NCBI GenBank assembly: GCA_965222605.1
Contig: OZ244960.1
Span: 2,016,001-2,080,000, forward strand
Origin: Candidatus Latescibacterota bacterium
GTDB lineage: Bacteria; Latescibacterota; UBA2968
Reading direction: 5' to 3'
Length of the DNA: 64,000 nucleotides
The position numbers were made by a program, and so were the translations under genes. Below are positions 25,217-43,010 of this stretch, piece after piece. The stretch's first letter is position 1, and every line of letters starts with the position of its first letter. The notes below the pieces were generated by a model that was not told where the DNA came from, did no database searches, and was given only the letters and a program-made list of their open reading frames with translations.

Positions 25217-25220
25217 TCTG

Positions 25221-25636: not shown

Positions 25637-25822
25637 ATGTTGAATGAATCACCATATAGAAAACCGAATCATGGCATGATCACTGGCCTTGCCGACAAAT
25701 ACTTTGTCGATGTCAAACAGTTGGTGATGGTTGGAGATACAGAAATTGACCAGCAGGCGGCTCAAAATGCCGATATTGGTCGTTTCATTTGGGCCAGGGA
25801 CTTCTTTGAAAGACAAGACTGA
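25637..25822 (+). pseudogene. C-terminal fragment of a HAD-IIIA (GmhB-like) phosphatase
   Basis: RKPNHGM...MVGDTEIDQQAA; the N-terminal DxD motif is missing. Confidence 0.7.
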
Positions 25823-25847
25823 ACTCCTGATGAGAGGAAAAACAAAC

Positions 25848-26006
25848 ATGTGGACGCCGGTTGAGACTCAATTTTACGCCAAACAGAACCCCATTGGCAT
25901 AATAAACATCGGAGACTTTCAAAAAGCTCATACAATCCGAACATTTGCTGAAGAGCTAAACCTGGCAGTCAGATTCTATGGAATCGGAACACCGGGTGAT
26001 TTATAG
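25848..26006 (+). pseudogene. Truncated copy of the 39739-40326 gene
   Basis: MWTPVETQF...IGTPGD is near-identical to 39739, then jumps to ATAGGTCTCAT. Confidence 0.88.
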
Positions 26007-26529
26007 GTCTCATTGCAAACCGCGAAAATATTAACCGAATGTCCCCTACCGAGAAATCATGGATACGATACCCCGCATAGTCAGGATAGAAGCCGATGAT
26101 TCTTACTCTGCCGGCGTCCGACTGGGCGAGAGTCTCGGCCATAGTTTTGGGGCCTACCTTGAAGATTACCTTGCTGCCCGAATTCTGGCAGCGAAGAACT
26201 GTACTAAGTCCTCGGAAACTCATGCTGTAGCGTGGATCAATGCTCTACCCCAGCATATATGTGACAGGTTTCGGGGCCTCTCCAAAGGAAGCGGGATCCC
26301 GTTCGAGCGCATAGCAAACTGGGGTTATCTGGAGATTGCGCTCAGTCAGGGCTGTAGCAGTATCATCTGTCGGTCCAAAGGCAAAATCTGGATTGGTCAC
26401 AACAACGATACCTTTGTACCCGAGCTATGGGGATACATCACCGTCCTGGCGATCAAGGGCCGCATCCCAACCATGTATTTCGGGCTTGCGGGAGATATCT
26501 GGGCGACCGCTGGATTCAATAAGGCGAAG

Positions 26530-27996
26530 GACGATGTGCCTATCTTAGTTGAAATAGTAGAGGCTCCAATGTAAATTGGATACAGCAAATTCACCGCAGA
26601 AAACGCTGTGTCCTCAACCAAAGGAGCCCGTGATGAAAAAAGTATCGCACAACGCCCCCAAAGTCAAGGCCATCCACAAAGACGATGCAACGCCAGAGAC
26701 CCCCCTTGAAGAAGAACTGGGCGCACTGGATACACGCATCGCGTTGATCCAGGCCTTGATCCCATTAGGATTAGACGCCGTGGCAGAAGAATTGCAAGAA
26801 GAAGTGACCCGCTTGGCAGGTCACAGATACACACGCAAAGACACCCAAAACCCCAATCGTCGGTGGGGCAGTCAACAAGGCTCGGTGTATCTAAGCGATC
26901 AGAAAGTGCCCATACCTGTTCCCAGGGTACGTAATGTCGTGACCGAGGAGGAAGTCTCCTTACAGACCTATCATCATCTTCAGCGTCCCCGACATATGGA
27001 TGAAGGGCTGCTCCTTCGTATGATAAAAGGCATTGCCACACGCGCTTATCAAGCCTGTGCTGAGGCGATACCCGAAGCCTTTGGGCTCTCCTCATCTACC
27101 GTATCGAGACGCTTTATCAAGGCGTCGGCACAAAAGTTGAAGCAGTTTCAAAATCGGTCTTTAGCACAGTATGACCTCGTCGCCCTGTTTATAGATGGCA
27201 AGACCTTTGCAGACGAGGAGATGATCATTGCCCTTGGCGTGACCATAAAAGGAGACAAAATCCCACTCGGCTTTATCCAGGCCGCCACCGAGAACGAGCG
27301 CGTCTGTCGGCAGTTTATACGGTCTCTCCTAAAGCGTGATCTGGTCTATCACAAGGGCCTGCTGTGTCTTATTGACGGCTCGAAAGGCTTGTATGCTGCC
27401 CTTACAAAGGCACTTTCTGGCTATGTGGTTATTCAACGTAAAGAGTGGCACAAACGCGAGAACGTCACTTCCTATCTGCCCAAAGGCAAACAAGATGAGA
27501 TCAAAAAGGCCCTCCAAAATGCCTACGATCTGCCCACCTATCGGGAAGCTAAAGCTGCTCTTGATGCCCTTAAACCTGAATTGACTTTGATCAACGAAGA
27601 CGCGACAAAAAGCCTTGAAGAAGGTCTTGAAGAAACCCTGAGCTTACATCGCTTGGGACTCATGCCGCAGTTGAAGCAGTCCTTTCGTACTACCAACTGC
27701 ATTGAGTCCCTTAACTCAATGGTGGCACAAATCACCAGGGATGGTGTACAACGTGTCGCTTTCCAGACACGTTCATGTGAAGCGATGGACAAACTCGAAT
27801 CAACGCACACGCTGGTTGGCCACTGCGCTGTTGGATATTGAACCGCGCTTGCGAAGGGTTAAAGGCTTCCGAAGCCTGCCCACGCTCAGGCGCGCGCTTC
27901 AAAAGGACTTGAAGATAGATACGGACTGGCAAGACGCGCTTGCTGCTGATTGAAACCACCGGCCTCGATTATTTCAACTAAAAATAGGACTTGACC
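26530..27996 (+). mobile_element. IS256-family insertion sequence
   Basis: 35-bp imperfect terminal IRs (core TTAGTTGAAATA.T.GAGGC); 8-bp TSD AGGCGAAG at 26522-26529 and 27997-28004. Confidence 0.92.
26633..27953 (+). pseudogene. IS256 (Mutator-type) DDE transposase, frameshifted
   Basis: FIDGK, LIDGSKGL, RTTNCIESLN; a 34-bp insertion at 27744-27777 shifts the VKRW...RWLATALL tail; QRKEWH replaces the usual CxxH. Confidence 0.85.
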
Positions 27997-28658
27997 AGGC
28001 GAAGCTCTAGCTGCACGTTGACCACTTGCGGGTGACCGATAGGCCAGATAACGGCAAAGTCATTCTACCGACGTATGGCTTCATCGTTGAAGCTCTGGAG
28101 ACGTGTGAAACCATTGATGATGTGCAGGATCTCCTGAACGAAATTGACAGAACAGAAGGTATGATCCTGATCGCTGCGGATGGCAAAACAGATGAAGCAG
28201 CCATCTTTGAATGCTCATGTTCCAAATGGAGACTGGAGAGAGTCAAAACGGATTGGGCCGTGAGAACAAACCACGCCATGATAGGACGAGGGAGCAAAAA
28301 GACAGGAAAGCGACCACTCGACACCTGGAGCAGATACAATCGCCTGGCGCAACTTCTCGAAAACACCTGCAATAGCGGCGGGGACCCAACACCATCGGAC
28401 TTGAAGACATATCTCGCCGACGACGGAGTGGAGCGAAGAAGCGAGGCGTTCGCAACCGCATATTCAGTCGTGGTATGCCCCGCTACCAGCCGGATTGAGT
28501 TCACACTGGGCGGACAACCAGCGGCCAGTTGTGGGAACTGGTCGCATATTGCGTGGCTCTGGCACTAAGAGCTTGCTGGAGATTTGTCAACCAAAACGGG
28601 TCAAGTCCAATCAGTTTATAGCGTCGTAGTACTAAAGAAAAAAAAGAAAGGCTACATA

Positions 28659-31058
28659 ATGATCGGTAGATATTTTGTCATTACTTTAAGGCGAACATTC
28701 AGAGATAAAACCTTCTCTTTGATCAATTTAATAGGACTTTCTATTAGCATGGCAAGCGTAATACTCATTATGGTATTTATGTTTAATGAGTTGACCTTCG
28801 ACACCTTCCATAAAAACTCTGATCGCATATTCAGAGTGTTGAGAGAAACTGAATCCTTAGCAGGAGCACCCCAGATTTCACCAGGGACCTCAGGCCTGTT
28901 GGGGCAGAGTTTAGTGGCAGATATTCCTGAAATTGAGAAAGTTACTCGTTTTTTTAGAATTAGCAAAAACTGGGCAACCAACGAAGAGAAGGGATTTTTT
29001 GTAGAATTTTGTGCTGTTGATCAAGAATTTTTGCAGATATTTTCTTTTCCTTTCAAGATTGGCGATCCAACAACCGCATTGAAAGACAAATTCTCTGTCG
29101 TTATAACAGAAGAAACGGCAGAAAAATTTTTCCCCAATGAAAATCCCATTGGTAAAACAATCTCTGTTGATGGCAGGTATTTTGGCGGAGATTATTTTGT
29201 CTCTGGCGTTGTAAAAGATATACCGCAAAACTCCTCTCTGCATTTTGACATATTGACATCTACTGTTCACAATGAAATACCATTGACCGCCTGGGAGAGA
29301 TGGCAACCAAATACATCCTGGCGACCAATCCAGACATTTGTCATGTTGTCTGATGCTGCGTCTCTGAAAAACATAGATACCAAACTTCAGAACCTTTTAA
29401 ATCGTTATATGGGACCTGATGTAAGTGAACGCAATCGATATATTCTCCAACCTCTGGAAAGAATGTATTTATACTCTAACCTTGAATATGGAATTAGAAG
29501 CGGTGGGGACATTACATACGTCTATATTTTTTCGGCAATCGCAATATTTATCGTACTTATTGCCAGCTTTAACTTTGTAAATCTATCTATAGCGCGATCT
29601 TCTGCCAGACTAAAAGAAATTGGCGTGAGAAAAACCGTCGGTGCCCATAAGAGTAGCCTCATTTTTCAATTTATAGCCGAAGCTGTTTTTACGGCATTTT
29701 GTTCTTCTCTTCTGGCCTTTTGTATTGTAGAAATCTCTCTTCCTTATCTGGATAGCTACATAAATCAAGAAGCCAAATTGGAATTCAGCGGACATCTATT
29801 ATTTTTTATAACATTTCTTACAGCCCTTGCTATAGGTACCATATCCGGACTTTACCCTGCGCTTTTCCTGGCATCTTTTCATCCCGTCCAAATACTAAGA
29901 CGTGAACTCCAGTTTAATAACTCTGGAAAATGGCTGAGAAATGGCTCTTTAATTTTTCAATTTGCTGCTTCTGTTGTACTTATCATCAGTACGATTGTCG
30001 TTTATGAACAAATGGCGTTTATTCAAAACAAGGCGTTGGGATTTGATAAAGAGCATATTGTCGTATTACCTCTTTTTACGACTGACCGCTCTCTAAATGA
30101 GCGATATCGAGTTATTAAGCAGGAATTTTTGAAACACCCCAATGTGATCTCTGCATCTGCATCCAATTCTACTATCGCCTGGTTTGGTGGTGCATTCCAT
30201 ACTGTCTATCCCGAAGGTTTTCAAGGTAGCGAATGGCAGATGAGAATATTGGGTGTTGACGAAGACTTTATAGATTTGTATGGGATAACACTGTCAAAAG
30301 GCCGGAACTTTTCAGCGGAGATCCCAGGTGATGCGACAGAAGCTTATATCTTAAATGAAACAGCAGTTGAGCAACTTGGGTGGCAAAATCCGATAGGAAA
30401 ACAGTTCGAATGGGTATATTGGAAGCGAAAGGGCGTTGTGATTGGTATTGTTGAGAATTTTCATAACCGATCTCTCAAAGAACCCATCAGGCCAATTGCT
30501 TTATGTATGTGGCAGCCCAAGTACAATCTTCTTTCTCTAAAAATTAGGGGTGAAAATATCAAAGATACAATGGCTTTTTTGGAGGATCAATGGAGCCGAT
30601 TTATTCCCGACAAACCATTCGAAGCCGCCTTTTTAGATGAACACCTGAACCAGCTATATCAAAATGACATTAAGTTCGGGCGTATATTTGGTGTATTTGC
30701 ATTGCTTGCCATTTTTATCGCCTGTTTGGGCATGTTGGGCATGGTATCTTATGCTTTAGAAAGAAGAACAAAAGAGATTGGAATTCGAAAAATTTTGGGC
30801 GCTTCGGCCTGGCACATTATTGTCCTGATTTTCTCCGAGTTTTTCGGAATCCTTGTTGTTGCTAATTTATTTGCGTGGTTAATTGCATTTCTTTTGATGG
30901 ATAATTGGTTGCTTTCATTTGCTTACAGGATTGAACTGTCACCTCATACTTTTGCCCTGGGAACGCTATTTGCAATTGCAATTACTTTTGCAACTGTAGC
31001 CTGGCATTTGATACAGGCCGCCTCAAAAAATCCCATTGACGAAATAAGATATGAATAG
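28659..31058 (+). CDS. ABC permease, duplicated MacB_PCD/FtsX (#5)
   Basis: IASFNFVNL, RLKEIGVRK, RTKEIGIRKILGA, NPIDEIRYE. Confidence 0.93.
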   Translation: MIGRYFVITLRRTFRDKTFSLINLIGLSISMASVILIMVFMFNELTFDTFHKNSDRIFRVLRETESLAGAPQISPGTSGLLGQSLVADIPEIEKVTRFFRISKNWATNEEKGFFVEFCAVDQEFLQIFSFPFKIGDPTTALKDKFSVVITEETAEKFFPNENPIGKTISVDGRYFGGDYFVSGVVKDIPQNSSLHFDILTSTVHNEIPLTAWERWQPNTSWRPIQTFVMLSDAASLKNIDTKLQNLLNRYMGPDVSERNRYILQPLERMYLYSNLEYGIRSGGDITYVYIFSAIAIFIVLIASFNFVNLSIARSSARLKEIGVRKTVGAHKSSLIFQFIAEAVFTAFCSSLLAFCIVEISLPYLDSYINQEAKLEFSGHLLFFITFLTALAIGTISGLYPALFLASFHPVQILRRELQFNNSGKWLRNGSLIFQFAASVVLIISTIVVYEQMAFIQNKALGFDKEHIVVLPLFTTDRSLNERYRVIKQEFLKHPNVISASASNSTIAWFGGAFHTVYPEGFQGSEWQMRILGVDEDFIDLYGITLSKGRNFSAEIPGDATEAYILNETAVEQLGWQNPIGKQFEWVYWKRKGVVIGIVENFHNRSLKEPIRPIALCMWQPKYNLLSLKIRGENIKDTMAFLEDQWSRFIPDKPFEAAFLDEHLNQLYQNDIKFGRIFGVFALLAIFIACLGMLGMVSYALERRTKEIGIRKILGASAWHIIVLIFSEFFGILVVANLFAWLIAFLLMDNWLLSFAYRIELSPHTFALGTLFAIAITFATVAWHLIQAASKNPIDEIRYE

Positions 31059-31128
31059 ACATGGAATCAAGGGAAACGACATAATGGGGTTGGTTTGACT
31101 GTCCTTTTTAAAACGCGGAGGGGCATTA

Positions 31129-33618
31129 ATGTTCAAAAACTATCTCGTCATCACGATTCGCCATTTGCTCAAATACAAAATGTACTCAGCGATCAATATT
31201 GTTGGGCTGGGTATTGGCATAGGGTGTGTCATATTGATCGGTCTATTTGTGCAAAACGAGTTGGCCGTTAACACACAACATCCACATACTGATCGCTTAT
31301 ATCGGGTCATTGGTGAGTTTCGATCAGAAAATGGTCAGAAAACATACGACTGGCGCATTTCGGGTGCAGTAGGCCCCACTCTGGCACGCGATTTTCCCGA
31401 AGTTGAAATCTCCACACGAACAATGCTTCGCCAAGCCTGGGTGCAGCATAAAGAGAAAGTCTTGAATCGGGTATTTTGTCTCGCCGACCCGAATTGCCTG
31501 GATATGTTTAACTTTCCAATGATACAGGGTGACAAGTCCGCTCTTTTACAGCATAATTCTGTTTTTATCACCGAATCTATGGCACGCGATTACTTTGGCG
31601 ATCAAGATCCCATCGGCAAAGTGGTTACTGTCGAAGGGGCCTATATCGGGGGCGATTATACTGTCGCGGGTGTGCTTAAAGATTTGCCCAGGCGATCTTC
31701 GATTCGTTTTGACATGCTTTCAGTCTCTGTCTGGCCTGCTTTTCTTTTTCAATACTGGAATGCCTATTTGCCAACAGCACATTGGCGAGGCGGAATCACG
31801 GTCCACGTACGGTTAAAAGAAAACACGGCAGTTGAAAAATTGGCTTTAAAAATACCCGCGATGGTAGAACAGTATATGGGACCGGAAATGGTAGCACGCA
31901 CGACGTATCACTTCCAGCCCATGGATGAAGTGCATTTGTACTCGCGACGCGATTATGGACTTCAGGACGTATTCGACATTCAAGGGCCAGTGATATATGG
32001 CAATATTGCACATGTCTATGCTGTATCTGCTACAGCCATTCTCATTTTTTTAATTGCGGGCATCAACTTCATCAATTTGACTACAGCCCGATCAGCTAAC
32101 CGGGCACGTGAGGTGGGATTGCGAAAAGTGGTCGGCGCACAGCGGGGACAACTCGCTTTGCAATTTCTGATTGAGTCAGTGATTTTCTCTGCATTGAGTT
32201 TGATTGTGGGTTTAGTTATTGCTTCTAATTGCTTACCACATTTCAACGATTATACGGGCAATTTTTTGACATTGGATATCACGAGCAATATGGTGCTCGC
32301 TCTGGTTGGATTGTCATTGATGACAGGACTTCTTACGGGGCTTTACCCAGCATTTTTTTTATCGCGGTTTCGGCCTGTTGAAGTGCTCAAGGGCACACTC
32401 GCAGCAGGTGCTCGCGGTGGGTTATTGCGCAAAGTACTGGTGGTTTTTCAGTTTAGCACATCTATTGCGCTGATTGTGATCACATTGGTTGTGTTTAATC
32501 AAATGTCGTATATCCAGAATAAAGACCTGGGATTTGACAAAGAGTATGTTATTGAGTCTCGTCTTTTGTGGGAATCTCGCAACTCTCGTTTGCGTGAAGA
32601 TCGCTTGTGGGAGCGGTACAATGTTGTCAAAGATGCGTTTTTGCAGCATCCCAATATTACGGCTGCAACGATTTCGCGTTCTTCACACGGACGCACTGCG
32701 CCACAAGCGACTTTTAGTGCTTATGAACCGGGCAAAGAAGAATTGCGTATAGGCAGGAATGAAGTGGATGAAGATTTCCTGAGTTTTTTCAATATTGAAC
32801 TTGTTGCGGGCCGAGACTTTTCAGAAGACGCAGCGAAAAGGTATGATTCGGAATCGTTTGTGCCCCGAGATCAGTTGGATCAACTAAAAGTTCACGGTCA
32901 GGCAGAATACATTCTCAATGAAACCGCTGTTAAAATGTTGGGTTGGACAGACCCCATTGGCAAACCATTTGGTGTGAAGGGGCGAAGACCAGGGCGTGTT
33001 GTAGGCGTGGTTAAAGATTTTCACTCGCGCACATTGCACGAGCCACTGGGCCCCATGGTTTTATATGCGAATAACGCGGTACCCAAGACACTTTACCTGA
33101 AGATAAGCCCTCAAAATCTCGATGAAACCATTGCACACATGGAAAAGGTATGGAAACATTTTTTGCCGATTCGCCCTTTTGCTTACACGTTTATGGATGA
33201 CAATCTGAATCAGCGCTATACACAAGAGCGACAGTTGAGCCACACAGTGAGCGTCTTTGCTGCTCTGGCTATTTTTGTTGCGTGTCTGGGGCTATTGGGG
33301 CTGGTTTCATTTTTGACCGAACTGCGCAAAAAGGAAGTAGGCATTCGGAAGGTGTTGGGTGCATCTGCAGGTCTTGTCGTAGGACTGTTTTTAAAAGAGT
33401 TTATTCGTTTGGTAATCGTGTCATGTTTATTGGCATGGCCGATTGCCTATTGGGCAACCAATGAATGGTTACAGAATTTTGCCTATCGCATTGAGACTTC
33501 GGTACTGCCGTTTTTAATTGGTGGTGCGTTTATGGTTTGCTTGACAACAATAACAGTAGCGTATAAGGTGATCAAAACAGCCCAGGCAAATCCAATAGAA
33601 GTCTTGCGGCATGAATGA
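31129..33618 (+). CDS. ABC permease, duplicated MacB_PCD/FtsX (#6; closest to #2)
   Basis: MFKNYL; YDWRISGAVGP and FCLADPN shared with #2; NPIEVLRHE. Confidence 0.93.
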   Translation: MFKNYLVITIRHLLKYKMYSAINIVGLGIGIGCVILIGLFVQNELAVNTQHPHTDRLYRVIGEFRSENGQKTYDWRISGAVGPTLARDFPEVEISTRTMLRQAWVQHKEKVLNRVFCLADPNCLDMFNFPMIQGDKSALLQHNSVFITESMARDYFGDQDPIGKVVTVEGAYIGGDYTVAGVLKDLPRRSSIRFDMLSVSVWPAFLFQYWNAYLPTAHWRGGITVHVRLKENTAVEKLALKIPAMVEQYMGPEMVARTTYHFQPMDEVHLYSRRDYGLQDVFDIQGPVIYGNIAHVYAVSATAILIFLIAGINFINLTTARSANRAREVGLRKVVGAQRGQLALQFLIESVIFSALSLIVGLVIASNCLPHFNDYTGNFLTLDITSNMVLALVGLSLMTGLLTGLYPAFFLSRFRPVEVLKGTLAAGARGGLLRKVLVVFQFSTSIALIVITLVVFNQMSYIQNKDLGFDKEYVIESRLLWESRNSRLREDRLWERYNVVKDAFLQHPNITAATISRSSHGRTAPQATFSAYEPGKEELRIGRNEVDEDFLSFFNIELVAGRDFSEDAAKRYDSESFVPRDQLDQLKVHGQAEYILNETAVKMLGWTDPIGKPFGVKGRRPGRVVGVVKDFHSRTLHEPLGPMVLYANNAVPKTLYLKISPQNLDETIAHMEKVWKHFLPIRPFAYTFMDDNLNQRYTQERQLSHTVSVFAALAIFVACLGLLGLVSFLTELRKKEVGIRKVLGASAGLVVGLFLKEFIRLVIVSCLLAWPIAYWATNEWLQNFAYRIETSVLPFLIGGAFMVCLTTITVAYKVIKTAQANPIEVLRHE

Positions 33619-33622
33619 TTAA

Positions 33623-33784
33623 ATGGGATTTAACGAATATTTTGTTTCAATGAAAAAGGAACTGAAACAAGAGTAACTCACAAGCCACGCCTATCTTCTG
33701 TGAAATACAGCATTCTTTACTGATGAGAGGAAAAACAAACATGTGGACGCCGGTTGAGACTCAATTGATTTGTCAACTAAAACG
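33623..33784 (+). repeat. Collapsed copy of the GNAT tail / MWTPVET start / post-C45 trailer block
   Basis: Matches 39620-39764, then jumps to GATTTGTCAAC.AAAACG as at 28581. Confidence 0.88.
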
Positions 33785-33819
33785 AGGTAACTCCATCACA
33801 TCACTCTGGTTGTTTTATT

Positions 33820-36216
33820 TTATTCGTACCGAAGCGCATCCACAGGGTTTGAACGCGCAGCTTTCAAAACGTGATAGCTCACCGTTAAAAGGGTAAGAAA
33901 GAGAGTCAGAAAGCCACTAATAGCGAACGCCCAAATTGGAAAAGATATATGGTATGCAAAATCGTTTAACCATTGCCCCACAGCATAATAGGCAATTGGC
34001 CATACACAGAGATTAGCCACCACAACCAACTTTATATACCCTCTAAAAAATAAAAAAACAACGTTCCAAATTGATGCTCCAAGAACTCTACGGATCCCTA
34101 TCTCTTTTATGCGTTTGTTCATAGCTAAAGCTGCAAGGCTAAAAATTCCAATACAGGCAATAAATATTGAAAATATAGAACCTGATCTACTTATCCTTTC
34201 CCAGCGTTCTTCCGCTCGATATTGGTTACCCAGGTCCTCGTCAAGAAAAGAGAATTGAAACAGAAGATGCGGATTTAATTCTGTCCACTTTTTTTTTAAT
34301 AGATTCAAAGTATGTTGAACTTCTACAGGACTTATCCGCACATAAATATATTGGTATCTGTCGGGACGATCCAACTCGAACACAGCAGGCTCAATCTGAT
34401 GGTGTAGAGATCGAGAATGGAAGTCTTTGACAACACCCACAATTTGTCTATTTCTAAATTCTGGAAGCATTTTGCCTATGGGCGATGTCCATCCAAACTC
34501 TCTAACCAATGCCTCGTTTACAATAATACTGCCATGCAAATCTGAATTCGAATCCTGGATAAATCCTCTTCCTTCACTTAATTTTATCCCAAGCGTTTCA
34601 ATAAAATTGGGAGCAACATCGAAAAATTGAACCTCAATCACAGAACCCTTGCACTTAACGCTCGTCGTCCAAATCAATCCCCCAAAGTGTACAAAAGATG
34701 CCGTAATACCCAGGACACTGGGATAACGGGATAATTCAGATTTATAAACTGTATAAAGATCTGACCTTTGCTCCTTATCTGGTTGGGATGCATCAATGAC
34801 TACGACTTGTTCGTCTTGAAAACCTCGATCTTTTGTTTTCAAATAATCTATCTGTTTAAAGGTGACAATCGCAAAAATGATTAGAAAAATTGATACCGAA
34901 AATTGAGTGGCTATCAGAGCTTTACTGAAAAAATTAGAGCCGCCAAGTTTTAAATTCCCTTTGAGCGTGTTAATTGGAGAATAGCCAGACAAAACGATCG
35001 AAGGGTAACTGCCGGCAATGATTCCAACAAGAATAGATAGCACAACGAGAGCAACAATCACTTCACTGCCATAGTCTAAGACCAGCTCTTTATTGGCGAC
35101 ACTGTTAAAAAGAGGTAGAGCAAGTTCCGCGAATGCGATTCCGACAAATAGCCCAATAAGACTTAATAACAGTGCCTCGCCCCAAAATTGTTGCATAAGT
35201 TGCAATCTCTCTGCTCCTACAATCTTACGTACACCTATTTCTTTAATACGAGTAGAGGCTAAAGCCATAGAAATATTGGCAAAATTGATACAGGCAACCA
35301 ATAGAACACCAAGAGCGATTCCAAGAACTACAAATGAGAATATTCTGTCTCCTATTGGCAATAATCCGCCAAGGATATCTGCATTCAAGTGAACATCGTA
35401 AAGAGGCTGTAAATCCAATTGAAGCGCATCATCGCTTAAAGCCAGCGCATCGTATTCTTGGTATTTTTGAATAGTTGATTGATAGTATTTTTGTATGAAC
35501 TCGGGAAATTTTGGGATGAGTTTCAAAGCATCGGCATTTTCCGATAGCAGTACATATGATATGACTCTGGAACTTCCCCATAGGTCAGCATACCTCTCAT
35601 AATTTGGTTGCATTTCAAATGGCAAAAGAAAATCAAATTTTAAGCTCGAATTCTCAGGTGTCTCCGATACGACACCTTTTATTACAAAATCGATATACTC
35701 TGCGTTTATCCTCACAGCGAGCGTCTTATCAATCGGATTTTCTCGATCAAAATACTTATGAGCCATCCTTTGACTGATTACTATTGATGCTCTATTATGG
35801 AGGGCTGTTTTGTCTCCATCCAAAAGGGGAAATGAAAAAACTTCAAAAACATCAGGACCTGCAAAGAGCATATTTTCGACAAACATTTTGTCTTTATATT
35901 TTACAACACATTTTTTTTCTCTAAATCTCACGACTTTTTCTATTTCGAGAAAATCGCGCTTTAATGCAGCAGCCAAGGGCGTTGGAACGCGTGCAGAATT
36001 TCTTATCTCTCCATTAGGGTTCTTTCTGATCTCATAGATACGATAAATTCGATCCAGATTCTCGTGGAATGTATCGTATGTCCACTCGTTGTGAATGTAA
36101 CGAAGGGTCAAAATGCAAAAGGCAATCCCTATGGCCAGGCCGAGGATATTAGTGAAGGAATAGACTTTTTGTCTCCAAAGATGACGAAGTGCAACTACCA
36201 GATAATTCTTGAGCAT
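33820..36216 (-). CDS. ABC permease, duplicated MacB_PCD/FtsX (#7, inverted)
   Basis: GGGAG RBS and MLKNYL; VACINFANI, RIKEIGVRK, SNPVDALRYE. Confidence 0.93.
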   Translation of the reverse strand: MLKNYLVVALRHLWRQKVYSFTNILGLAIGIAFCILTLRYIHNEWTYDTFHENLDRIYRIYEIRKNPNGEIRNSARVPTPLAAALKRDFLEIEKVVRFREKKCVVKYKDKMFVENMLFAGPDVFEVFSFPLLDGDKTALHNRASIVISQRMAHKYFDRENPIDKTLAVRINAEYIDFVIKGVVSETPENSSLKFDFLLPFEMQPNYERYADLWGSSRVISYVLLSENADALKLIPKFPEFIQKYYQSTIQKYQEYDALALSDDALQLDLQPLYDVHLNADILGGLLPIGDRIFSFVVLGIALGVLLVACINFANISMALASTRIKEIGVRKIVGAERLQLMQQFWGEALLLSLIGLFVGIAFAELALPLFNSVANKELVLDYGSEVIVALVVLSILVGIIAGSYPSIVLSGYSPINTLKGNLKLGGSNFFSKALIATQFSVSIFLIIFAIVTFKQIDYLKTKDRGFQDEQVVVIDASQPDKEQRSDLYTVYKSELSRYPSVLGITASFVHFGGLIWTTSVKCKGSVIEVQFFDVAPNFIETLGIKLSEGRGFIQDSNSDLHGSIIVNEALVREFGWTSPIGKMLPEFRNRQIVGVVKDFHSRSLHHQIEPAVFELDRPDRYQYIYVRISPVEVQHTLNLLKKKWTELNPHLLFQFSFLDEDLGNQYRAEERWERISRSGSIFSIFIACIGIFSLAALAMNKRIKEIGIRRVLGASIWNVVFLFFRGYIKLVVVANLCVWPIAYYAVGQWLNDFAYHISFPIWAFAISGFLTLFLTLLTVSYHVLKAARSNPVDALRYE

Positions 36217-36308
36217 AATCAACTCCCTATATGTATCAGTAATATCTACAATAAAGACACTCACAGAATGCTAAAAGTGTCGGTTTGTACCTCGATATAG
36301 TAAATTTT

Positions 36309-36339
36309 AAAAGGACCGGACGACCCGGTCCCTTTTTTT
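36309..36339 (+). terminator. Intrinsic terminator-like hairpin
   Basis: AAAAGGACCGG-ACGAC-CCGGTCCCTTTTTTT. Confidence 0.6.
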
Positions 36340-36386
36340 AAAACCGTGTAATTTCTGTACTCACCCACAACTTTTGAATGCTCCTA

Positions 36387-36506
36387 AGTGTTCATTTTCG
36401 GACACCACTGTATCAAAATCGGACACTTTTTAAGACGTCAATTTCAGGTAATTTTCGTAACCTGTTGTTATATCAACATTTGACTTTTTTGGCATAATTT
36501 TTGCTC
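36387..36506 (+). promoter_or_regulatory. Sigma-54 promoter module copy 2
   Basis: Identical 49-bp UAS core; TGGCATAATTTTTGC (GG at 36491). Confidence 0.85.
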
Positions 36507-36521
36507 AATATTTGTTTAAGA

Positions 36522-36581
36522 TGGGAACTGGTCTCATATTGCGTGGATGTGGCACTAAGGGCTTTCCAGTGATCTGTCAAC
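36522..36581 (+). repeat. Remnant of the C45 gene 3' end and trailer
   Basis: TGGGAACTGGTCTCATATTGCGTGG...TGGCACTAAG...GATCTGTCAAC matches 28532-28591. Confidence 0.88.
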
Positions 36582-36593
36582 GGAGGTCTCTCC

Positions 36594-38981
36594 ATGTGGA
36601 AAAATTATCTCACCATAATCATTCGAAACATTCGCAATCACAAACTTTATTCATTGATTAACATAGTAGGATTAGCGGTGGGTCTGACGAGTTGTGGCCT
36701 AATCCTCCTATGGATACAGCATGAGACAAAATATGATCAACACCATCTCAACGGCGACCACATTTACAGGGTATTGAGACAGGTTAAAAATAAAACGTCT
36801 GGGGATTCCTACTTCAATTATGGCACCCTGGGACCTGTAGGCCCTGCTCTAAAAGCCGACTTTCCTGAAATCGAAGCGATGACCCGAATATTTACCCGTA
36901 ATGCGTGGATTCGGTACAAAGATAAGGGATTCCAAGAGAACTTCTGTGTTGCCGATGGTAGTTTTTTCGATGTATTCACATTTCCTTTACTAAAGGGCGA
37001 TCATCAGGCACTACTGAAACATCCTGCTTCTGTGGTTATTACGGAAACGGTTGCACGAAAGTATTTTGGTAATGAAAATCCTGTCGGCAAGGTTGTTACT
37101 GTAGAAAGTCGTTATACGGGGGGTGATTATGAAATTGTAGGCATCTTGAAAGATTTGCCGAGTCAATCAACACTCCAATTCGACATACTGACGTTTACTA
37201 TTCCTTCTTTACCACTGATGCATGCGGTTTGGGAAAGATGGCGTAAATCTTCTTTTCGTCCTGTCCAAACTTATCTATTGCTTTCTGAAGGCACTTCCTC
37301 TGCTGATTTAGAGCGTAAACTACCGGACTTTACCACCCGCTACTTTGATCTTGAAACGCGTGCGAACACAACGTATCACCTGCAACCTTTTCGCCGGATC
37401 TATCTCTACTCACGTTCAGACTACGGTATAGCAGGTGGTGGAGACATTACATATATCTATTTATTTTCTGCGATCGGTACTCTGATTCTTCTGATCGCTT
37501 GTGCGAACTTTATGAATTTGGCAACAGCGCGTTCAGCCAAAAGAGCAAGAGAAGTGGGCATTCGCAAGACCGTCGGCGCACACAAACTTCAATTAATCAA
37601 CCAATTCTTCAGTGAATCGCTATTCATATCACTCCTGTCTTTGCTATTTTCAATTTCACTGATTGAGCTTGTCCTGCCAACATTCGAACAATTTGTGGGC
37701 ATAGACTTGCGTTTTGGCGTCTCTGATCTCTTCTTAATGATCGCTCTTACCGTACTGATGGGATTACTCGCAGGAAGCTATCCCGCTTTCTTTTTGTCGA
37801 GTTTTCAACCTGTACAGGTATTAAGCGGCAAGCACTCAAACGCCTTAAAAGGTGTTCGCATACGAGAGGTCCTGATCGTCTTTCAGTTCTGTGTGTCTAT
37901 CGCCCTCATAATTTGCACTGGTGTAGTCTATCAGCAACTGAATTACATAAAAAATAAAAAACTTGGCTTCAACAAAGAGATGGTGGTCATGATGCCGCTA
38001 TTTGCAACAGACCGCTCCCTCACAAGTAAGTATAAATTGATCAAACAGGAATTTCTCAAACATCCCAATATTCACCGTGCAACCGCATCTCAAATCACAC
38101 TCTGGTATGACGGAGGACGTGAGCTTGTCATTCCAGAAGGAATGGATGGCGAAGAGGTCAGAATGAGGCATCTGGTAGTAGATGAAGACTTTTTGGACAC
38201 ATTCGAAATCGATGTGATAGCCGGAAGAAATCTGAATAAAGATATTGCAAGCGACTCTTTCGAAGCATTTATTCTCAACGAGACGGCTGTTAAACAACTC
38301 GGATGGAAAGATCCTGTTGGAAAGCAATTTACCTGGCCTCTTAATAATCGTCGCGGAACAGTAATCGGGGTCGTGCGCGATTTTCATCTGCTGTCTCTCC
38401 ACGAAGAAATAGAGCCAATTTTCATTTGCAAGTGGCAGACACAATGGAATTGGCTATCAGTCAAAATTGGACGAGAGAACATATCATCAACAATAGATTT
38501 CATGGAGTCAAAGTGGAAGCAATTCATTCCAAACCGGCCTTTTGACAGCTCATTTCTAAGCGAAAATCTTGAAAGATCTTATCTAAAGGAAATCGAGATC
38601 TTCAGTGTCCTCGAAATCTTCACGCTTCTCGCTTTTTTTGTCGCTTGTATGGGATTATTTGGCCTTGCAAATTTCAGTGTCGAACAAAGAATCAAAGAAA
38701 TTGGCATCCGCAAAGTACTGGGTGCAAACCTTGTAGATATTTTTACATTACTTTCAAAAGAATTCCTGAAGTTAATCGCAGTTGCTTATGTCTTGGCTCT
38801 TCCCCTCGCCTATTATGCCGGGGAAGAATGGCTACAAAATTTTGCATACCGAATAAATCAGAGCATCCTTGTTTTTATTATAGGAGCAGTCTCGGGCATC
38901 ATTGTCACCCTATCAATCGTAGGCTATCAGGCTGGCAAAGCCTGGTCTGAAGACCCGGTTAAAATGCTCCGGCAAGAATAA
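36594..38981 (+). CDS. ABC permease, duplicated MacB_PCD/FtsX (#8)
   Basis: GGAGG RBS; IACANFMNL, RAREVGIRK, RIKEIGIRKVLGA. Confidence 0.93.
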   Translation: MWKNYLTIIIRNIRNHKLYSLINIVGLAVGLTSCGLILLWIQHETKYDQHHLNGDHIYRVLRQVKNKTSGDSYFNYGTLGPVGPALKADFPEIEAMTRIFTRNAWIRYKDKGFQENFCVADGSFFDVFTFPLLKGDHQALLKHPASVVITETVARKYFGNENPVGKVVTVESRYTGGDYEIVGILKDLPSQSTLQFDILTFTIPSLPLMHAVWERWRKSSFRPVQTYLLLSEGTSSADLERKLPDFTTRYFDLETRANTTYHLQPFRRIYLYSRSDYGIAGGGDITYIYLFSAIGTLILLIACANFMNLATARSAKRAREVGIRKTVGAHKLQLINQFFSESLFISLLSLLFSISLIELVLPTFEQFVGIDLRFGVSDLFLMIALTVLMGLLAGSYPAFFLSSFQPVQVLSGKHSNALKGVRIREVLIVFQFCVSIALIICTGVVYQQLNYIKNKKLGFNKEMVVMMPLFATDRSLTSKYKLIKQEFLKHPNIHRATASQITLWYDGGRELVIPEGMDGEEVRMRHLVVDEDFLDTFEIDVIAGRNLNKDIASDSFEAFILNETAVKQLGWKDPVGKQFTWPLNNRRGTVIGVVRDFHLLSLHEEIEPIFICKWQTQWNWLSVKIGRENISSTIDFMESKWKQFIPNRPFDSSFLSENLERSYLKEIEIFSVLEIFTLLAFFVACMGLFGLANFSVEQRIKEIGIRKVLGANLVDIFTLLSKEFLKLIAVAYVLALPLAYYAGEEWLQNFAYRINQSILVFIIGAVSGIIVTLSIVGYQAGKAWSEDPVKMLRQE

Positions 38982-39019
38982 ACGACTCCCCACAACATTA
39001 TTCTATTCGATGATCTCAA

Positions 39020-39673
39020 ATGTCTCTCGTTAAAAATCAGGATATTCGCATCTTTTATGAAGTTGTAGGGCAAGGGCAACCTCTCGTTCTATTGCATGGA
39101 TTTGCTGGCAATTCAAAAGACTGGAAAAGAAACGGTTATGTTGAAAAATTAAGCGATGATTACCAGCTCATTCTCATTGATGAAAGAGGACATGGCCTAA
39201 GCGATAAGCCGCATGATCCGGCAGCCTATGAAATAGAAAAGAGAGCTTCTGATCCTCAGTTGGCCAGAATGAATAGCTGTCTCGTGGATGATCAGGGTAG
39301 CGAGAATCCGTTTTCATTGACAGAATATGAGGACCGGTTTCGCGAGTGGTTAAATACCAATATATGGACGGTAGATGTATTTCTACATGATGGACAGATA
39401 ATAGGCTATTCTGTCTATCAAGAGCGTACTGACTACTATGATCCAAATGAGACGGTAATTTATATCCGACAGTATTACATTAAACGCTCTCATCGTCGGC
39501 TTGGCCTGGGTAAAGCGGCCTTCCAGATTTTGATAGACACGCGTTTTCCAAAGGGCGTTCAATCCATAGCTCTCCATGTCATGGCAACTAACTCAGTAGG
39601 CCAGAATTTTTGGAGAAAGATGGGCTTTAACGAATATTTTATTTTGATAAAAAAGGAACTGAAACAAGAGTAA
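39020..39673 (+). pseudogene. In-frame deletion chimera: alpha/beta-hydrolase N-terminus + GNAT
   Basis: LVLLHGF...DERGHGLSDKP without GxSxG, joined near 39250 to a GNAT (HRRLGLGK, FWRKMGF). Confidence 0.75.
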
Positions 39674-39738
39674 CTCACAAGCCGCGCCTATATTCCGTGA
39701 AATACTGCATTCTTTACTGATGAAAGGAAAAAACAAAC

Positions 39739-40326
39739 ATGTGGACGCCGGTTGAGACTCAATTTGACGCCAAACAGAAGCCCATTGGCATAATATGCAT
39801 CGGAGACTTTCAGGAAGCTCATACAATCCGAACGTTTGCTGAAGAACTAAACCTGGCAGTCAGATTCTATAAAATCGGAACACCGGGCGATTTTTTGAAG
39901 GTCATCAGTCAAGAATCTGAATTGCCTCCCTGCATCATTATCTGCGGTCACGGAGATGAGAATGGGATTGTCTTTGGCGACTATATGGAGGGCATTGATA
40001 CATCAATACTAAAGGACGAGAGCATGCCTCCAGAGTGTATTGAAGAACATGCAAATCTAACTGATCGAATTTTTGTGAATACGTGTTGTGTAGGCGGGAC
40101 AGACGCAATGGCAAGCGCATTTTTGAAGAGTAATCCGAGATGCTACATTGGATCTTTGGATTATCAAAATGCCGTGTCAACGTCCATCTTCTTGACATTA
40201 TTTCTGGATCAGTTATTGCGGAAAAATAAGCCAGTGCAGGAAGCGTGGAATCGGGCAGCCTCTTATGATGGTGAAACACGTCACTTTGCTTTTTATGATT
40301 CCAATGGACGTCAAAAAATCGAATAG
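39739..40326 (+). CDS. Hypothetical protein with caspase/CHAT-like His-Cys pattern
   Basis: IIICGHGD and IFVNTCC motifs. Confidence 0.65.
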   Translation: MWTPVETQFDAKQKPIGIICIGDFQEAHTIRTFAEELNLAVRFYKIGTPGDFLKVISQESELPPCIIICGHGDENGIVFGDYMEGIDTSILKDESMPPECIEEHANLTDRIFVNTCCVGGTDAMASAFLKSNPRCYIGSLDYQNAVSTSIFLTLFLDQLLRKNKPVQEAWNRAASYDGETRHFAFYDSNGRQKIE

Positions 40327-40350
40327 GTCTCATATTGCGTGGCCCTGGCA

Positions 40351-41043
40351 CTAAGGAATTTCTAATATTGCGGGTAGGTCAGTCAATGAACTGATTTCGT
40401 AATCAGCTTTAATCCCAGTGTCATTTGTCAGACCTTCGCGATTTAGCCAAACCGTATGCGCTCCGGATGCACCCGCCCCTGCAACATCTTGTTCCAGGGA
40501 ATCTCCGACGTGTAATAACTGCTCCAGCGAGCAATACGCCCTTTGTGCAGCGATCTGAAAAATTCTTCGATCAGGCTTCGCAACACGCACATCCTGAGCA
40601 AGGACAACAAAGTCAAAACGTCTTGCAAGTCCACAGCGTTCCGGGTAACTATTCCCGTTTGATAAAAGTCCGATCTTGAAATGAGGGGCCAAAATATCAA
40701 GCGCAGGTACAACATCCTTATACAACTCAATATCTTCGAAACGATGCTTTAGATAGATTTTATTGAGATGCATGGCCAGGTCACTGTCCGGATATCCAAC
40801 ATATTCAAGCGTTCTCTCAAATGCCAGCCGTCTGATTTCCTCGAGATTCCAGACCTCGCCTTTCACCTCCTCAGCAAGCCGATTGCGAATCACAATCATA
40901 TCCTCAACAGTAAGGTCTAAAGCGCGTTGGGTCGAAACATGCCTGCACAATTCCCTCAATGTATGCGTTAACGAATGTCGCATGACCTTATAAAAGTCCC
41001 ACAAGGTCATATCACCATCAAAAGAAATCGCTGAAATTCGCAA
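40351..41043 (-). CDS. HAD-family hydrolase (inverted)
   Basis: GGAGGAG RBS and TTG start; FDGDMTL, LSNG, KPD, VGDS...DV. Confidence 0.9.
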   Translation of the reverse strand: MRISAISFDGDMTLWDFYKVMRHSLTHTLRELCRHVSTQRALDLTVEDMIVIRNRLAEEVKGEVWNLEEIRRLAFERTLEYVGYPDSDLAMHLNKIYLKHRFEDIELYKDVVPALDILAPHFKIGLLSNGNSYPERCGLARRFDFVVLAQDVRVAKPDRRIFQIAAQRAYCSLEQLLHVGDSLEQDVAGAGASGAHTVWLNREGLTNDTGIKADYEISSLTDLPAILEIP

Positions 41044-41057
41044 GATCTCCTCCTCTC

Positions 41058-41177
41058 AGTGTTCATTTTCGGACACCACTGTATCAAAATCGGACACTTT
41101 TTAAGATGCCAATTTCGGGTGATTTTTCGTAACCTGTTGTTATATCAATATTTGGCTTTTTGGCACAGTTTTTGCAG
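41058..41177 (+). promoter_or_regulatory. Sigma-54 promoter module copy 3
   Basis: Identical 49-bp UAS core; TGGCACAGTTTTTGCA (GG at 41162). Confidence 0.88.
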
Positions 41178-41228
41178 TAAAAATGAGGACTCCTGATACT
41201 ACTGTAATTGCCTATATGGAAAATAGAA

Positions 41229-43010
41229 ATGCAAAAACCACCATCATCTCTACCCGCTTTTTTATGGCACTTCCTACGTCCCCACAGACTGAGCGTTTTG
41301 GGATTAGTTGGTACGGGCGTCTTTTGGGCATTGGAAATGTCTTTCAAACCCTATTTGGTCAAATTGCTCATTGACGGCATTGTGGCTTATGGGGAAACGG
41401 CGGAAAATTTATTTAATCTGGTCGTTTTACCGGCAATTTTCTATGTGGCGTTATTGGAAGCGAACAATTTCAACTATAGAATGATGGATTTTATAAAGTT
41501 GCGGCTGATACCCAATTTAGAAAGGGATATCTCTGCCAGCATGTTCGATTATCTGGAGCGACATTCGTACCAATATTTTCAGAACCAATTTGCCGGAAAC
41601 CTTTCAAACAAGGTTATGGATATGGCAAGGGGAGCAGGAACGATTGTGGAGAGAATGGAGACATTTTTTTCTCACTTTACTGCACTGATTATTGCATCCA
41701 TTCTGCTTTTCTTTATTCATCCATTTTTTGCACTCGTTTTTGTTCTTTGGGCCGCTCTTTTCCTATCCGGTACTGTATTTCTTTCAAAGAGATCACACCA
41801 GTATTCAACCATTGCATCCGAGTCGCGCAGCATTGTAATGGGGAAAATTGTGGACAGTCTTGCCAATGTCATCAATATACATCTCTTCGCACGCAACAAG
41901 TACGAAAAGGAATATCTGCATGGGTACTTAAATGATGTAATGGAAAAAGACCGACGACTGAGGTGGTACCTGTTCAAGATCAAATATCTACAAGGATTTT
42001 CAATTACTTTGCTGGTAGGGGGTTGGCTCTTCTGTCTCGTCTATTACTATTCCCGGGGGCTGATCACCATTGGGGATTTTACGTTTGTCCTTACACTGGC
42101 AATGACGATTGTATGGGAAGTATGGAGATTGGCAGACTCACTTGTAGGATTTTCACAAGAACTGGGGATTTGCCGACAGGCCATTGCCATCGTAACAATT
42201 CCTCACGAGATTGCAGATGTTCGCGGAGCCAAACGGCTGAACATTTCAGATGGCGCGATTGTTTTCGACCAGGTCAGCTTCCACTACGTTCCGGGACGTG
42301 ATATTTTTGAGGATAAGACAATAGAAATTCAGGGAGGTCAGAGGGTCGGTTTGGTTGGATCTTCCGGAGTCGGTAAAACCACATTTGTCAATTTGATTCT
42401 TCGTTTCTTTGATGTGCAGAACGGGCGTATTCTGATTGATGGACAAGATATCAGTCAAGTCAAGCGAGAGTCACTCCACGAGCAAATAGCGATGATACCC
42501 CAAGATCCCGGTTTATTTCACCGCACATTGATGGAGAACATACGCTATGGTCGATTGGATGCGACAGATGAAGAAGTGATTGCGGCTTCTCAAAAGGGAC
42601 ACTGCCACGAATTTATCGAGCAGATTGAAGGCGGCTATCAGGCACTGGTTGGTGAACGCGGCATTAAACTTTCGGGAGGGCAGCGTCAGAGGATCGCCAT
42701 TTCAAGAGCCATATTGAAAAACGCTCCTATTCTCATCTTGGATGAGGCGACATCGGCCCTTGATTCAATTACTGAAAAATACATTCAGAAAAGCCTGGAA
42801 GACCTCATGAGAGATCGGACAACCATTGCTATCGCCCACCGCCTATCAACGCTTGCCACGATGGATCGCATTCTGGTGTTCAAAGATGGACAGATTGTTG
42901 AAGATGGTACGCATGTAGAACTTTTGGAACAGAAAAGCCACTATTTCCATTTGTGGCGTATGCAGGTCAGAGGTTTTTTGCCGAGAGAATCGAACAATGG
43001 TGAAAATTAG
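41229..43010 (+). CDS. ABC exporter, fused TMD-NBD (MsbA/MdlB type)
   Basis: N-terminal TMs; GSSGVGKT, LSGGQRQR, ILDEATSALD, IAHRLST. Confidence 0.93.
   Translation: MQKPPSSLPAFLWHFLRPHRLSVLGLVGTGVFWALEMSFKPYLVKLLIDGIVAYGETAENLFNLVVLPAIFYVALLEANNFNYRMMDFIKLRLIPNLERDISASMFDYLERHSYQYFQNQFAGNLSNKVMDMARGAGTIVERMETFFSHFTALIIASILLFFIHPFFALVFVLWAALFLSGTVFLSKRSHQYSTIASESRSIVMGKIVDSLANVINIHLFARNKYEKEYLHGYLNDVMEKDRRLRWYLFKIKYLQGFSITLLVGGWLFCLVYYYSRGLITIGDFTFVLTLAMTIVWEVWRLADSLVGFSQELGICRQAIAIVTIPHEIADVRGAKRLNISDGAIVFDQVSFHYVPGRDIFEDKTIEIQGGQRVGLVGSSGVGKTTFVNLILRFFDVQNGRILIDGQDISQVKRESLHEQIAMIPQDPGLFHRTLMENIRYGRLDATDEEVIAASQKGHCHEFIEQIEGGYQALVGERGIKLSGGQRQRIAISRAILKNAPILILDEATSALDSITEKYIQKSLEDLMRDRTTIAIAHRLSTLATMDRILVFKDGQIVEDGTHVELLEQKSHYFHLWRMQVRGFLPRESNNGEN

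Follow-up and report, generated by a model that had tools for sequence, protein, structure and literature searches.

Probable build-up and erosion of a permease array locus by tandem duplication and deletion in a sponge-associated Latescibacterota bacterium

Introduction

We describe a dispensable, fast-changing accessory locus of a sponge-associated Candidatus Latescibacterota bacterium, which occupies about 22.3-46.2 kb of the 64-kb stretch of DNA analysed here (G000:C1:2016001-2080000, in the following called the window). The locus is an array of FtsX/MacB permease genes resembling the Acidobacterial duplicated orphan permeases (ADOP), and the small enzyme genes between them encode a hydrolase, a GNAT protein, a predicted mini caspase-fold protein referred to as His/Cys, a C45 Ntn-hydrolase, a HAD protein and an ABC-B exporter. 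G000, the genome that carries it, is a single-contig closed metagenome-assembled genome (MAG) of 6.34 Mb, whose marker genes indicate 98.7 % completeness and 5.4 % contamination. Its close relatives, identified via the His/Cys protein, are Candidatus Latescibacterota MAGs as well, and the sequencing runs containing parts of the locus sequence are mostly sponge metagenomes. Among published abstracts we found none on this locus.

Nucleotide-level maps of the locus were made for G000 and 12 congeners of the genus, 13 genomes in all, and proteins were compared additionally. Read-level evidence stems from Logan contigs, which are assembled from short reads. The permease genes are named X1-X5 and are distinct from the sequencing runs X1, X19, X21 and X23, which are always called runs below.

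Gene content and partial copies

The locus holds the following features (window positions, strand in brackets).

25637..25826 (+): o61, 61-codon fragment of a HAD-IIIA (GmhB-like) phosphatase, C-terminal part according to NCBIfam; adjoins copy A on its left
25827..26002 (+): copy A, His/Cys stub; ribosome-site region and first 52 codons, then an internal deletion of ~430 nt
26003..28568 (+): copy A, C45 segment; gene of the C45 family (Ntn, acyl-CoA:6-APA acyltransferase-like), interrupted by an insertion sequence (IS)
26530..27996 (+): IS256-family IS inside C45; 1,467 bp, transposase 26576-27841, 8-bp target duplication
28532..28609 (+): copy A, trailer; final 37 nt of C45 and downstream spacer, running into X1
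28659-31058 (+): permease X1, ADOP-like; Pfam MacB_PCD + FtsX twice
31129-33618 (+): permease X2, ADOP-like; Pfam MacB_PCD + FtsX twice
33623..33795 (+): copy B; last 51 nt of GNAT, GNAT-His/Cys spacer and first 9 codons of His/Cys, fused directly to the trailer end
33820..36264 (-): permease X3, ADOP-like (Pfam), convergent with X2; orthologues in G006 and G014
36384..36504 (+): HADup, copy of the promoter region from which HAD and ABC-B diverge; 91 % to 41055-41175, 89 % to 2812-2946
36522..36581 (+): copy C; only C45 tail and trailer, 13 nt upstream of X4
36594..38981 (+): permease X4, ADOP-like (Pfam, NCBIfam)
39020..39673 (+): copy D, fusion open reading frame (ORF); codons 1-78 of an alpha/beta hydrolase (ABH) gene joined to an N-truncated GNAT
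39739..40326 (+): copy D, His/Cys; intact gene, 195 aa
40326..40362 (+): copy D, C45 tail; adjoins the His/Cys stop at GGTCTCAT after excision of C45
40351..41043 (-): HAD-IA hydrolase (Pfam, NCBIfam)
41055..41175 (+): second HADup copy, between HAD and the ABC-B exporter gene
41208-43010 (+): ABC-B type exporter (Pfam), first gene of the end of the third partial unit, 41208..45498
43087-45498 (+): permease X5, ADOP-like (Pfam)
45557-46123: GrpB-like gene (Pfam/NCBIfam)

A preliminary description of the window had proposed that a gene block of the order GNAT, His/Cys, C45 and trailer persists in four partial copies (A-D), and every match it described was recovered when the window was compared with itself by BLAST and by a repeat finder. 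Self-BLAST aligned A 25827-26002 with D 39717-39893 (92.7 % over 177 nt, E 1e-68), B 33623-33766 with D 39620-39764 (92.4 % over 145 nt, E 6e-54) and A 25827-25873 with B 33720-33766 (100 % over 47 nt, E 5e-17). At the downstream end of the block, the A tail at 28532-28591 matched C 36522-36581 (85 % over 60 nt, E 1e-11), and the D tail matched both the A tail (40326-40355 to 28540-28569, 93 % over 30 nt) and C (40326-40362 to 36530-36566, 86 % over 37 nt). The repeat finder related B 33767-33795 to the end of the A trailer at 28581-28609 (83 %). The octamer GGTCTCAT lies at 26006, 36530 and 40326, with the variant GGTCGCAT at 28540, and beyond these three places the whole genome has no match to a 17-nt core of the trailer with 0-1 mismatch; 17 further genome-wide matches with 2-3 mismatches have unrelated flanks. 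Coding sequence of His/Cys and C45 occurs nowhere in G000 outside this locus.

The content of two copies had to be amended. Copy A was said to have lost His/Cys and retained C45; most of His/Cys is indeed deleted, but its first 52 codons are kept and the C45 gene is interrupted by the IS256-family element. Copy D was said to retain GNAT and His/Cys; the latter is intact and C45 is gone, but GNAT is truncated at its 5′ end and fused to a hydrolase fragment. Pfam places Abhydrolase_1 at 21-72 and Acetyltransf_1 at 100-203 of this fusion ORF. Its hydrolase part, abbreviated ABHn, equals the first 78 codons of a gene found whole in G009 (252 aa, 97 % identical over those codons), and its GNAT part lacks ~15 N-terminal codons relative to an intact 151-aa paralogue at 1.65 Mb of G000 (84 % on amino acid level). 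Copy B corresponds to the arrangement of G006 and G014, in which C45 and trailer are followed by X3(-), minus its middle. His/Cys is thus the only intact gene of the block in G000, C45 being split and GNAT a truncated fusion, which fits relaxed selection on the block.

The C45 gene extends over 26059-28568 (+). NCBIfam C45_proenzyme matches both halves, Pfam AAT (PF03417) the C-terminal one, and the halves score 52 and 62 bits against C45_proenzyme NF040521 (profile positions 3-151 and 171-312) relative to a whole-protein cut-off of 85, the gene being IS-split here; uninterrupted orthologues are present in 11 of the mapped congeners. The inserted element encodes a Mutator-type transposase (Pfam Transposase_mut PF00872, E 5e-31) and has 20-nt terminal inverted repeats at 26545-26564 and 27962-27981 according to the repeat finder. 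Such a transposase of the DDE class combined with terminal inverted repeats and an 8-9 bp target duplication characterises the IS256 family. One 100 % identical copy (310739-312205) and five other full copies lie elsewhere in G000. Contigs of runs X19 (the probable source run), X21 and X23 contain an IS-free C45 joint that leaves out 1,475 nt, 6-8 letters being ambiguous. This agrees with the 8-bp target duplication and with a polymorphic, recent insertion; an IS-free C45 allele exists in the population.

Deletion scars

Where His/Cys and C45 are both kept, one GGTCTCAT stands right after the His/Cys stop and another 25 nt before the C45 stop. The sequence following the His/Cys stop is TAGGTCTCATTGCAAACCGCG in G000 copy A and in the first G009 copy (G009a), and TAAGTTTCAT in G006, G015 and the second G009 copy (G009b); the octamer is therefore not part of all alleles, the latter three reading AGTTTCAT. 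The C45 tail reads GGGAACTGGTCTCATATTGCGTGG and the copy D joint GAATAGGTCTCATATTGCGTGG, with one octamer left. The C45 loss in copy D, which had been mapped to this repeat before, accordingly falls exactly between the two octamers and reads, from the letters of the joint, as a clean deletion. In G004 the left joint is the same as in copy D but the right side is of X4 type, which means either that the octamer served in two contexts or that the joint underwent recombination afterwards, and G009b lost its C45 at a different point from copy D.

C45 was also removed from copies B and C, the latter with a distinct left border (TGGGAACT). The copy C stub with HADup upstream is common to G000, G003, G015, G009 and G014, and a C45-tail stub of the same type follows X5 in G006, precedes X1 in G009 and contains an IS in G004. 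Since at least seven mapped genomes carry this stub, it is old, and the events at the locus are not all recent or specific to G000.

His/Cys is missing from G013, G020, G014, G007 and G004, where GNAT joins C45 at CAAGCCGCG; in G006, CAAGCCGCG and CAAACCGCG flank the corresponding His/Cys segment. In copy A, the deletion inside His/Cys has the junction GATTT|ATAGGTCTCAT without clear microhomology, and the joint between X2 and the GNAT stub of copy B shares ~3-4 A's. Overall, the junctions other than the C45 excision show 0-4 nt or an imperfect 9-nt homology. Further stubs derive from the 3′ end of the ABC-B gene, with one shared boundary in G006, G009 and G020, and from HAD in G003, G015, G005, G009 and G019. 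These stubs are deletion scars.

Pfam detected no site-specific recombinase (integrase, Phage_integrase, invertase or resolvase) among the 48 ORFs of the window, in which IS transposases (Transposase_mut, OrfB_IS605/TnpB) are the only such enzymes. No shared motif, hairpin or imperfect palindrome was seen by eye in 14 junction sequences, an inverted-repeat search of the window returned only IS ends, and no Rfam family matched in the window.

Comparison with related genomes

The interior of the locus differs in all 13 mapped genomes, from empty (G002) to 24 kb (G000), between syntenic flanks of 87-96 % identity. The module orders are as follows, with (-) marking the minus strand.

G002: left flank joined to GrpB and right flank (empty)
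G013: o61-GNAT-C45-HAD(-)-GrpB
G017: GNAT stub-HADup-X4-GrpB
G007: GNAT-C45-HAD(-)-HADup-X1-X2-GrpB
G014: ABH stub-GNAT-C45-X3(-)-HADup-C45 tail-X4-X2-GrpB
G006: C45 tail-GrpB-like-GNAT-His/Cys-C45-X3(-)-HAD(-)-ABC-B stub-X5-C45 tail-X4-X2
G003, G015: His/Cys-C45-HAD stub-HADup-C45 tail-X4-X1-X2
G005: His/Cys-C45-HAD stub-X4-X2, without X1 between X4 and X2; contig ends in X2
G019 (closest relative): o61-X2-HAD stub-HADup-ABC-B-X5
G020: GNAT-C45-X1-ABH stub-HAD(-)-ABC-B stub-X5-extra permease
G009: ABH-methyltransferase-His/Cys-C45-HAD(-)-ABC-B stub-X5-C45 tail-X1-His/Cys-C45 tail-HAD stub-HADup-C45 tail-X4-GrpB
G004: His/Cys (frameshifted)-C45 tail [DDE_3 IS]-X4-GNAT-C45-HAD(-)-GrpB
G000, unit 1: His/Cys stub-C45 with inserted IS-X1-X2
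G000, unit 2: GNAT stub-His/Cys stub-trailer-X3(-)-HADup-C45 tail-X4
G000, unit 3: ABHn fused to GNAT-His/Cys-C45 tail-HAD(-)-HADup-ABC-B-X5-GrpB

A search for undeleted versions found the rebuilt order GNAT-His/Cys-C45-trailer intact and contiguous in G006, followed by X3(-). After the loci had been oriented, all BLAST pieces had the same (+) orientation, without any inverted module in the 13 genomes. A reference module order was assembled by hand, as were the module labels, from the single-unit genomes G006, G003, G014 and G007. Among 12 genomes tested against it, G005 and G002 being left out, seven consist of one collinear run, four of two and G000 of three; G006 counts as two runs only through the C45-tail stub upstream of its GNAT.

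The small genes of the mapped genomes survive as one good copy plus stubs; His/Cys is present in two copies in G009 and as one copy with two stubs in G000. Copies within G000 diverge by 0-15 % and orthologues between species by 6-13 %. X1 and X2 are 92-95 % identical to their congener orthologues on nucleotide level, and the ABC-B-X5 stretch (41208..45498) is 96.9 % identical to that of G019. Identity between G019 and G000 amounts to 96-97 % on ABC-B-X5 and the right flank, compared with 90-94 % on X2, o61 and the left flank, a shift showing that recombination tracts end inside the locus.

Contig evidence

Of the sampled words, 98 % are contained in run X19, which is possibly the source sample. 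Its contigs match the G000 sequence with zero mismatches at depths of 24-44 over 28383-31152, 31163-33623, 33737-36394, 36408-38971, 38942-39679, 39736-40333, 40304-41031 and 41077-45000. They bridge the joints trailer-X1-X2, HADup-C45 tail-X4 and X4-ABHn-GNAT with at least 31 letters on each side, and the inner joint of B and the D joint (His/Cys end to HAD) with just 22-30 letters on one side. Two minor joints of depth 16 accompany the main form, one from the His/Cys end to the C45 start (short side 19) and one from 41057 to 36342, as in G019.

The contigs of other studies differ at the neighbours of X2 and at copy D, so that the locus varies among near-identical strains. A 2,243-nt contig of run X1 consists of ABH and 557 other letters followed by 39609-41057 including the D joint, and the same run joins X2 (33621) to 39000. 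Run X23 shows His/Cys, an IS-free C45 and HAD in a row, and runs X21 and X23 both carry the A-tail and C joints. In run X21, X3 has 2 differences in 2,363 nt, a different sequence follows X2, and copy D is covered at a depth of 4-12 versus 55-95, although uncovered parts in runs X21 and X1 and all depth figures are to be read as hints only.

Permease genes and their upstream motif

The X1-X5 proteins comprise ~800 aa with duplicated MacB_PCD+FtsX halves. With this architecture and with many paralogues, nine ADOP-like genes in the window (five in the locus and four at 2956-16835), they resemble the ADOP (TIGR03434)/MacB-type FtsX families, from which they differ in scoring below the cut-off and in belonging to the phylum Latescibacterota. 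X1 and X4, the two proteins scanned against NCBIfam, reach 262 and 293 bits with the TIGR03434 model, under its cut-off of 622 bits. The permease stretch at 2956-16835 is rearranged among congeners, too: in G004 the counterpart of 10759-13191 precedes that of 7466-8289, and G003 is without 8316-10751. G020 encodes a sixth ADOP-like permease of 788 aa between X5 and the right flank (L056 14187-16553), with no window counterpart at ≥78 % nucleotide identity.

HADup contains a 46-nt motif that occurs in 13 copies in G000, including window positions 36386-36431, 41058-41103 and 2813-2858, and is built of two direct repeats ~21 nt apart, GTTCATTTTCGGACAC ... ATCAAAATCGGACAC. Eleven of the 13 copies have an ADOP-like permease gene within 3 kb downstream and one has the ABC-B exporter, hence the motif looks like a putative operator of a permease regulon. 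Scans of 25.6-41.3 kb for sigma-70 promoters and terminators gave no excess over shuffled sequence (27 vs 30.4 and 17 vs 13.9, respectively), and the idea that the trailer was kept for a promoter it carries was dropped because these counts are not above shuffles. A sigma-54-like TGGCAC...TTGC in the trailer was rejected by eye on spacing.

Origin of the locus

Any account of the locus has to accommodate the observed repeats and scars, the intact order in a relative, the collinearity, the constant orientation and the strain-level differences. The best reading, in our view with a probability of roughly 0.62, is that a multigene unit underwent tandem segmental duplication and that its copies were then subject to differential deletion, partly at short direct repeats. 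The unit would have been approximately (ABH)-GNAT-His/Cys-C45-X3(-)-HAD(-)-ABC-B-X5-[C45 tail]-X4-X1-X2 and was probably duplicated in tandem more than once, mostly before the present species split. Each copy of the unit would then have lost different genes by deletion, in some cases between short direct repeats (GGTCTCAT; CAAGCCGCG/CAAACCGCG) and in others with little or no homology. G000 would thereby have kept three partial units, the four copies described before being their stubs and survivors, and one working copy of each permease would be left together with a trail of stubs. That tandem duplication, not import, made the extra copies is what we infer, as is the order of events.

This reading is preferred because the repeats are specific to the locus, the order is intact in G006, and the units are collinear and of one orientation. 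The deletion scars are moreover of independent kinds; ABHn and o61 derive from genes of which G009 and G015, respectively, have complete versions; zero-mismatch contigs bridge several joints, and the window encodes no recombinase besides IS transposases. The earlier proposal of repeated amplification or additive acquisition followed by microhomology pruning holds insofar as remnants of a repeated, larger unit and short-repeat deletions are present, but some joints have little or no homology.

Several observations weigh against the duplication reading. No permease gene occurs twice within the mapped stretches of any of the 13 genomes, nor was a permease stub seen in G000, and under duplication this lack of doubled permease genes requires their complete later loss. 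The left-hand modules (APH, o61, DUF433/DUF5615, methyltransferase, and GNAT in G015) fit no simple order and were excluded from the collinearity count. For the remaining modules G000 has 2 order breaks in 19 adjacencies relative to the reference order, compared with a shuffled mean of 9.9 and 0 of 20,000 shuffles as low, a figure that is descriptive rather than a test, given the hand-made labels and a reference order taken from related genomes. Trees of His/Cys (9 sequences) and C45 (7 sequences) are star-like with bootstraps of 45-95, and paralogues diverge about as much (~7-15 %) as species do (~6-13 %), so that duplication within the genome is not separable from import on these grounds. 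The X19 contigs break at every stub, and the long-range order of the three units therefore comes from the deposited assembly only, while the minor alternative joints suggest a second strain in the sample.

The additive import of copies from related strains or species is the strongest competitor, although we regard it as clearly less probable. Each copy would have entered through one homologous anchor (a permease gene, the C45 tail or HADup) and an illegitimate microhomology joint at its other end, and the stacked copies would have been pruned later. Such a history would explain why the G000 copies differ about as much as orthologues between species, and it agrees with the identity pattern of G019, whose recombination tracts end inside the locus. 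Strains of 99-99.9 % identity in other samples have other X2 neighbours and are without copy D, and the His/Cys alleles are mosaics of two upstream types, both of which point in the same direction. No donor was identified, however, and collinearity and the lack of doubled permease genes are equally expected from duplication within the genome.

A more far-reaching view, which we hold to be doubtful, is that constant turnover of the permease array is itself a strategy, in which short conserved joints (the C45 tail, the HADup region and the permease 3′ ends) would serve as preferred recombination substrates.

A dedicated cassette-exchange system, integron-like or shufflon-like, in which the trailer or the HADup element would act as the site and single genes would be moved, is very improbable. 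It would account for the sharp module borders, which lie 15-50 nt from start or stop codons, for the ABH border at 39000, which is found after X4 in G000, after X1 in G020 and after X2 in one run X1 contig, and for the C45 tail that accompanies X1 or X4 in several contexts. Sharp borders may, on the other hand, reflect the survival of only those rearrangements that preserved genes, and HADup, as a genome-wide motif upstream of permease genes, is better read as a regulatory site. Integrase, invertase and resolvase genes are as absent from the window as Rfam families, the 14 junctions inspected by eye have no motif or hairpin in common, no inversions occur, and many breakpoints lie within genes and leave dead stubs. 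The integron-like shuffling suggested in the preliminary description is not supported: no integrase is encoded in the window, no attC-like site was seen by eye in the 14 junctions, and no inversions occur in the 13 genomes. The locus does have single-gene modules, very short spacers and an order that varies between relatives in common with integron cassette arrays; it differs from them in that no IntI was found, no attI/attC was seen, no promoterless-cassette logic applies, stubs lie inside genes and the order is conserved within units. As the partial copies are always collinear, they fit duplication and deletion, not excision and re-insertion of cassettes.

An assembly artefact, in which the assembler would have strung together the three partial units from different strains present in the sample, is similarly improbable: although the genome is a MAG and minor joints of about depth 16 stand beside the main form at 24-44 in run X19, zero-mismatch contigs of this run cover all segments of the G000 order at 24-44x and bridge several G000-specific joints, a long-read assembler would not be misled by stubs of only 47-177 nt at 85-100 % identity, two-unit forms exist in independent closed genomes (G009, G004, G020), and G014 shares a 5.2-kb X3-HADup-C45 tail-X4 stretch.

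Duplication followed by differential deletion has well-known counterparts. Bacterial tandem duplication-amplification with remodelling by deletion is familiar from the Salmonella lac and Acinetobacter cat systems, which likewise feature collinear units of one orientation, illegitimate or microhomology joins and later copy-specific deletions. Whereas these laboratory cases are young, identical and unstable, the copies described here are old (7-15 % diverged), fixed differently per species and nearly fully fractionated. Fractionation, the reciprocal loss of genes after duplication, is known mainly from eukaryotic whole-genome duplications; the locus resembles it in that no permease gene is present twice in the mapped genomes and the surviving copy sits in a different unit per genome, and departs from it in being a bacterial accessory locus of 20-50 kb with scars readable at the nucleotide level. 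The process is known and the example new, and the locus reveals no new gene-shuffling mechanism.

The His/Cys protein and neighbouring genes

The His/Cys protein (window 39739-40326) matched no family of Pfam or NCBIfam. A search of 5.8 billion proteins returned 11 relatives, one of them labelled 'Peptidase family C25' by its source, and His71, Gly72 and Cys117 are invariant in an 11-sequence alignment of the query and ten relatives. Its AlphaFold model (pLDDT 88, pTM 0.85) retrieved SAVED-CHAT 8tl0 as the best Foldseek match (E 1.6e-7, TM 0.63), followed by caspase-7/-3/-1, separase, DdvA and Craspase CHAT. On the strength of this model, His/Cys is predicted to be a 195-aa stand-alone protein of caspase/CHAT fold with a His-Gly/Cys dyad in canonical clan CD order, and it may act as a peptidase. 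It defines a small unannotated family without a partner domain, which was detected in 8 of the 20 congeners searched and, with G000 counted, in 11 of a total of 61 genomes.

To the left of copy A, o61 has a full-length counterpart in a 160-aa gene of G015, and the same fragment is found in 8 congeners; its joint to His/Cys is common to G000 and G004. Further left, an IS200/IS605-type TnpB element (23613-24962; OrfB_IS605, Cas12f1-like TNB) lies between APH and DUF433; the other 12 mapped genomes lack it here, and congeners contain numerous diverged copies of it. The adjacent DUF433/DUF5615 pair (24977-25580), which is likely toxin-antitoxin-like, is whole in G000 and G014 and cut to a stub of 100-200 nt in G015, G003, G006, G017 and G020. 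On the other side of the locus, the spacer between GrpB and the right flank (46124-46235) contains a further short repeat of the dispersed kind, to which the genomes of congeners have dozens of matches at 80-92 %. At 50282-51541 (-), a gene for an AAA_21 (AbiEii-like) ATPase and a small partner ORF upstream of it possibly form a defence or toxin-antitoxin module, and this segment is absent or replaced in several congeners. A cluster at 47090-63287 is rich in genes for dioxygenases of the PhyH family (5 ORFs), two sulfatases and a glycosidase of type GHL6, as is typical of the use of sulfated glycans.

Conclusion

The locus provides a clear natural record of how an accessory locus is built up and eroded, comprising unit copies, scars at the nucleotide level, an intact version in a sister species and near-identical strains that differ. 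It illustrates that apparent cassette shuffling can arise from duplication and deletion alone. If the array were kept in flux, strains of this sponge symbiont would continually re-deal ADOP permeases and companion enzymes in a homology-based analogue of a cassette array that works without a dedicated recombinase and would be selected by host or competitor peptides. The locus furthermore draws attention to a large, fast-turning family of ADOP-like permeases, to the operator-like motif they share and to an unannotated protein of predicted mini caspase fold in an uncultured sponge symbiont.

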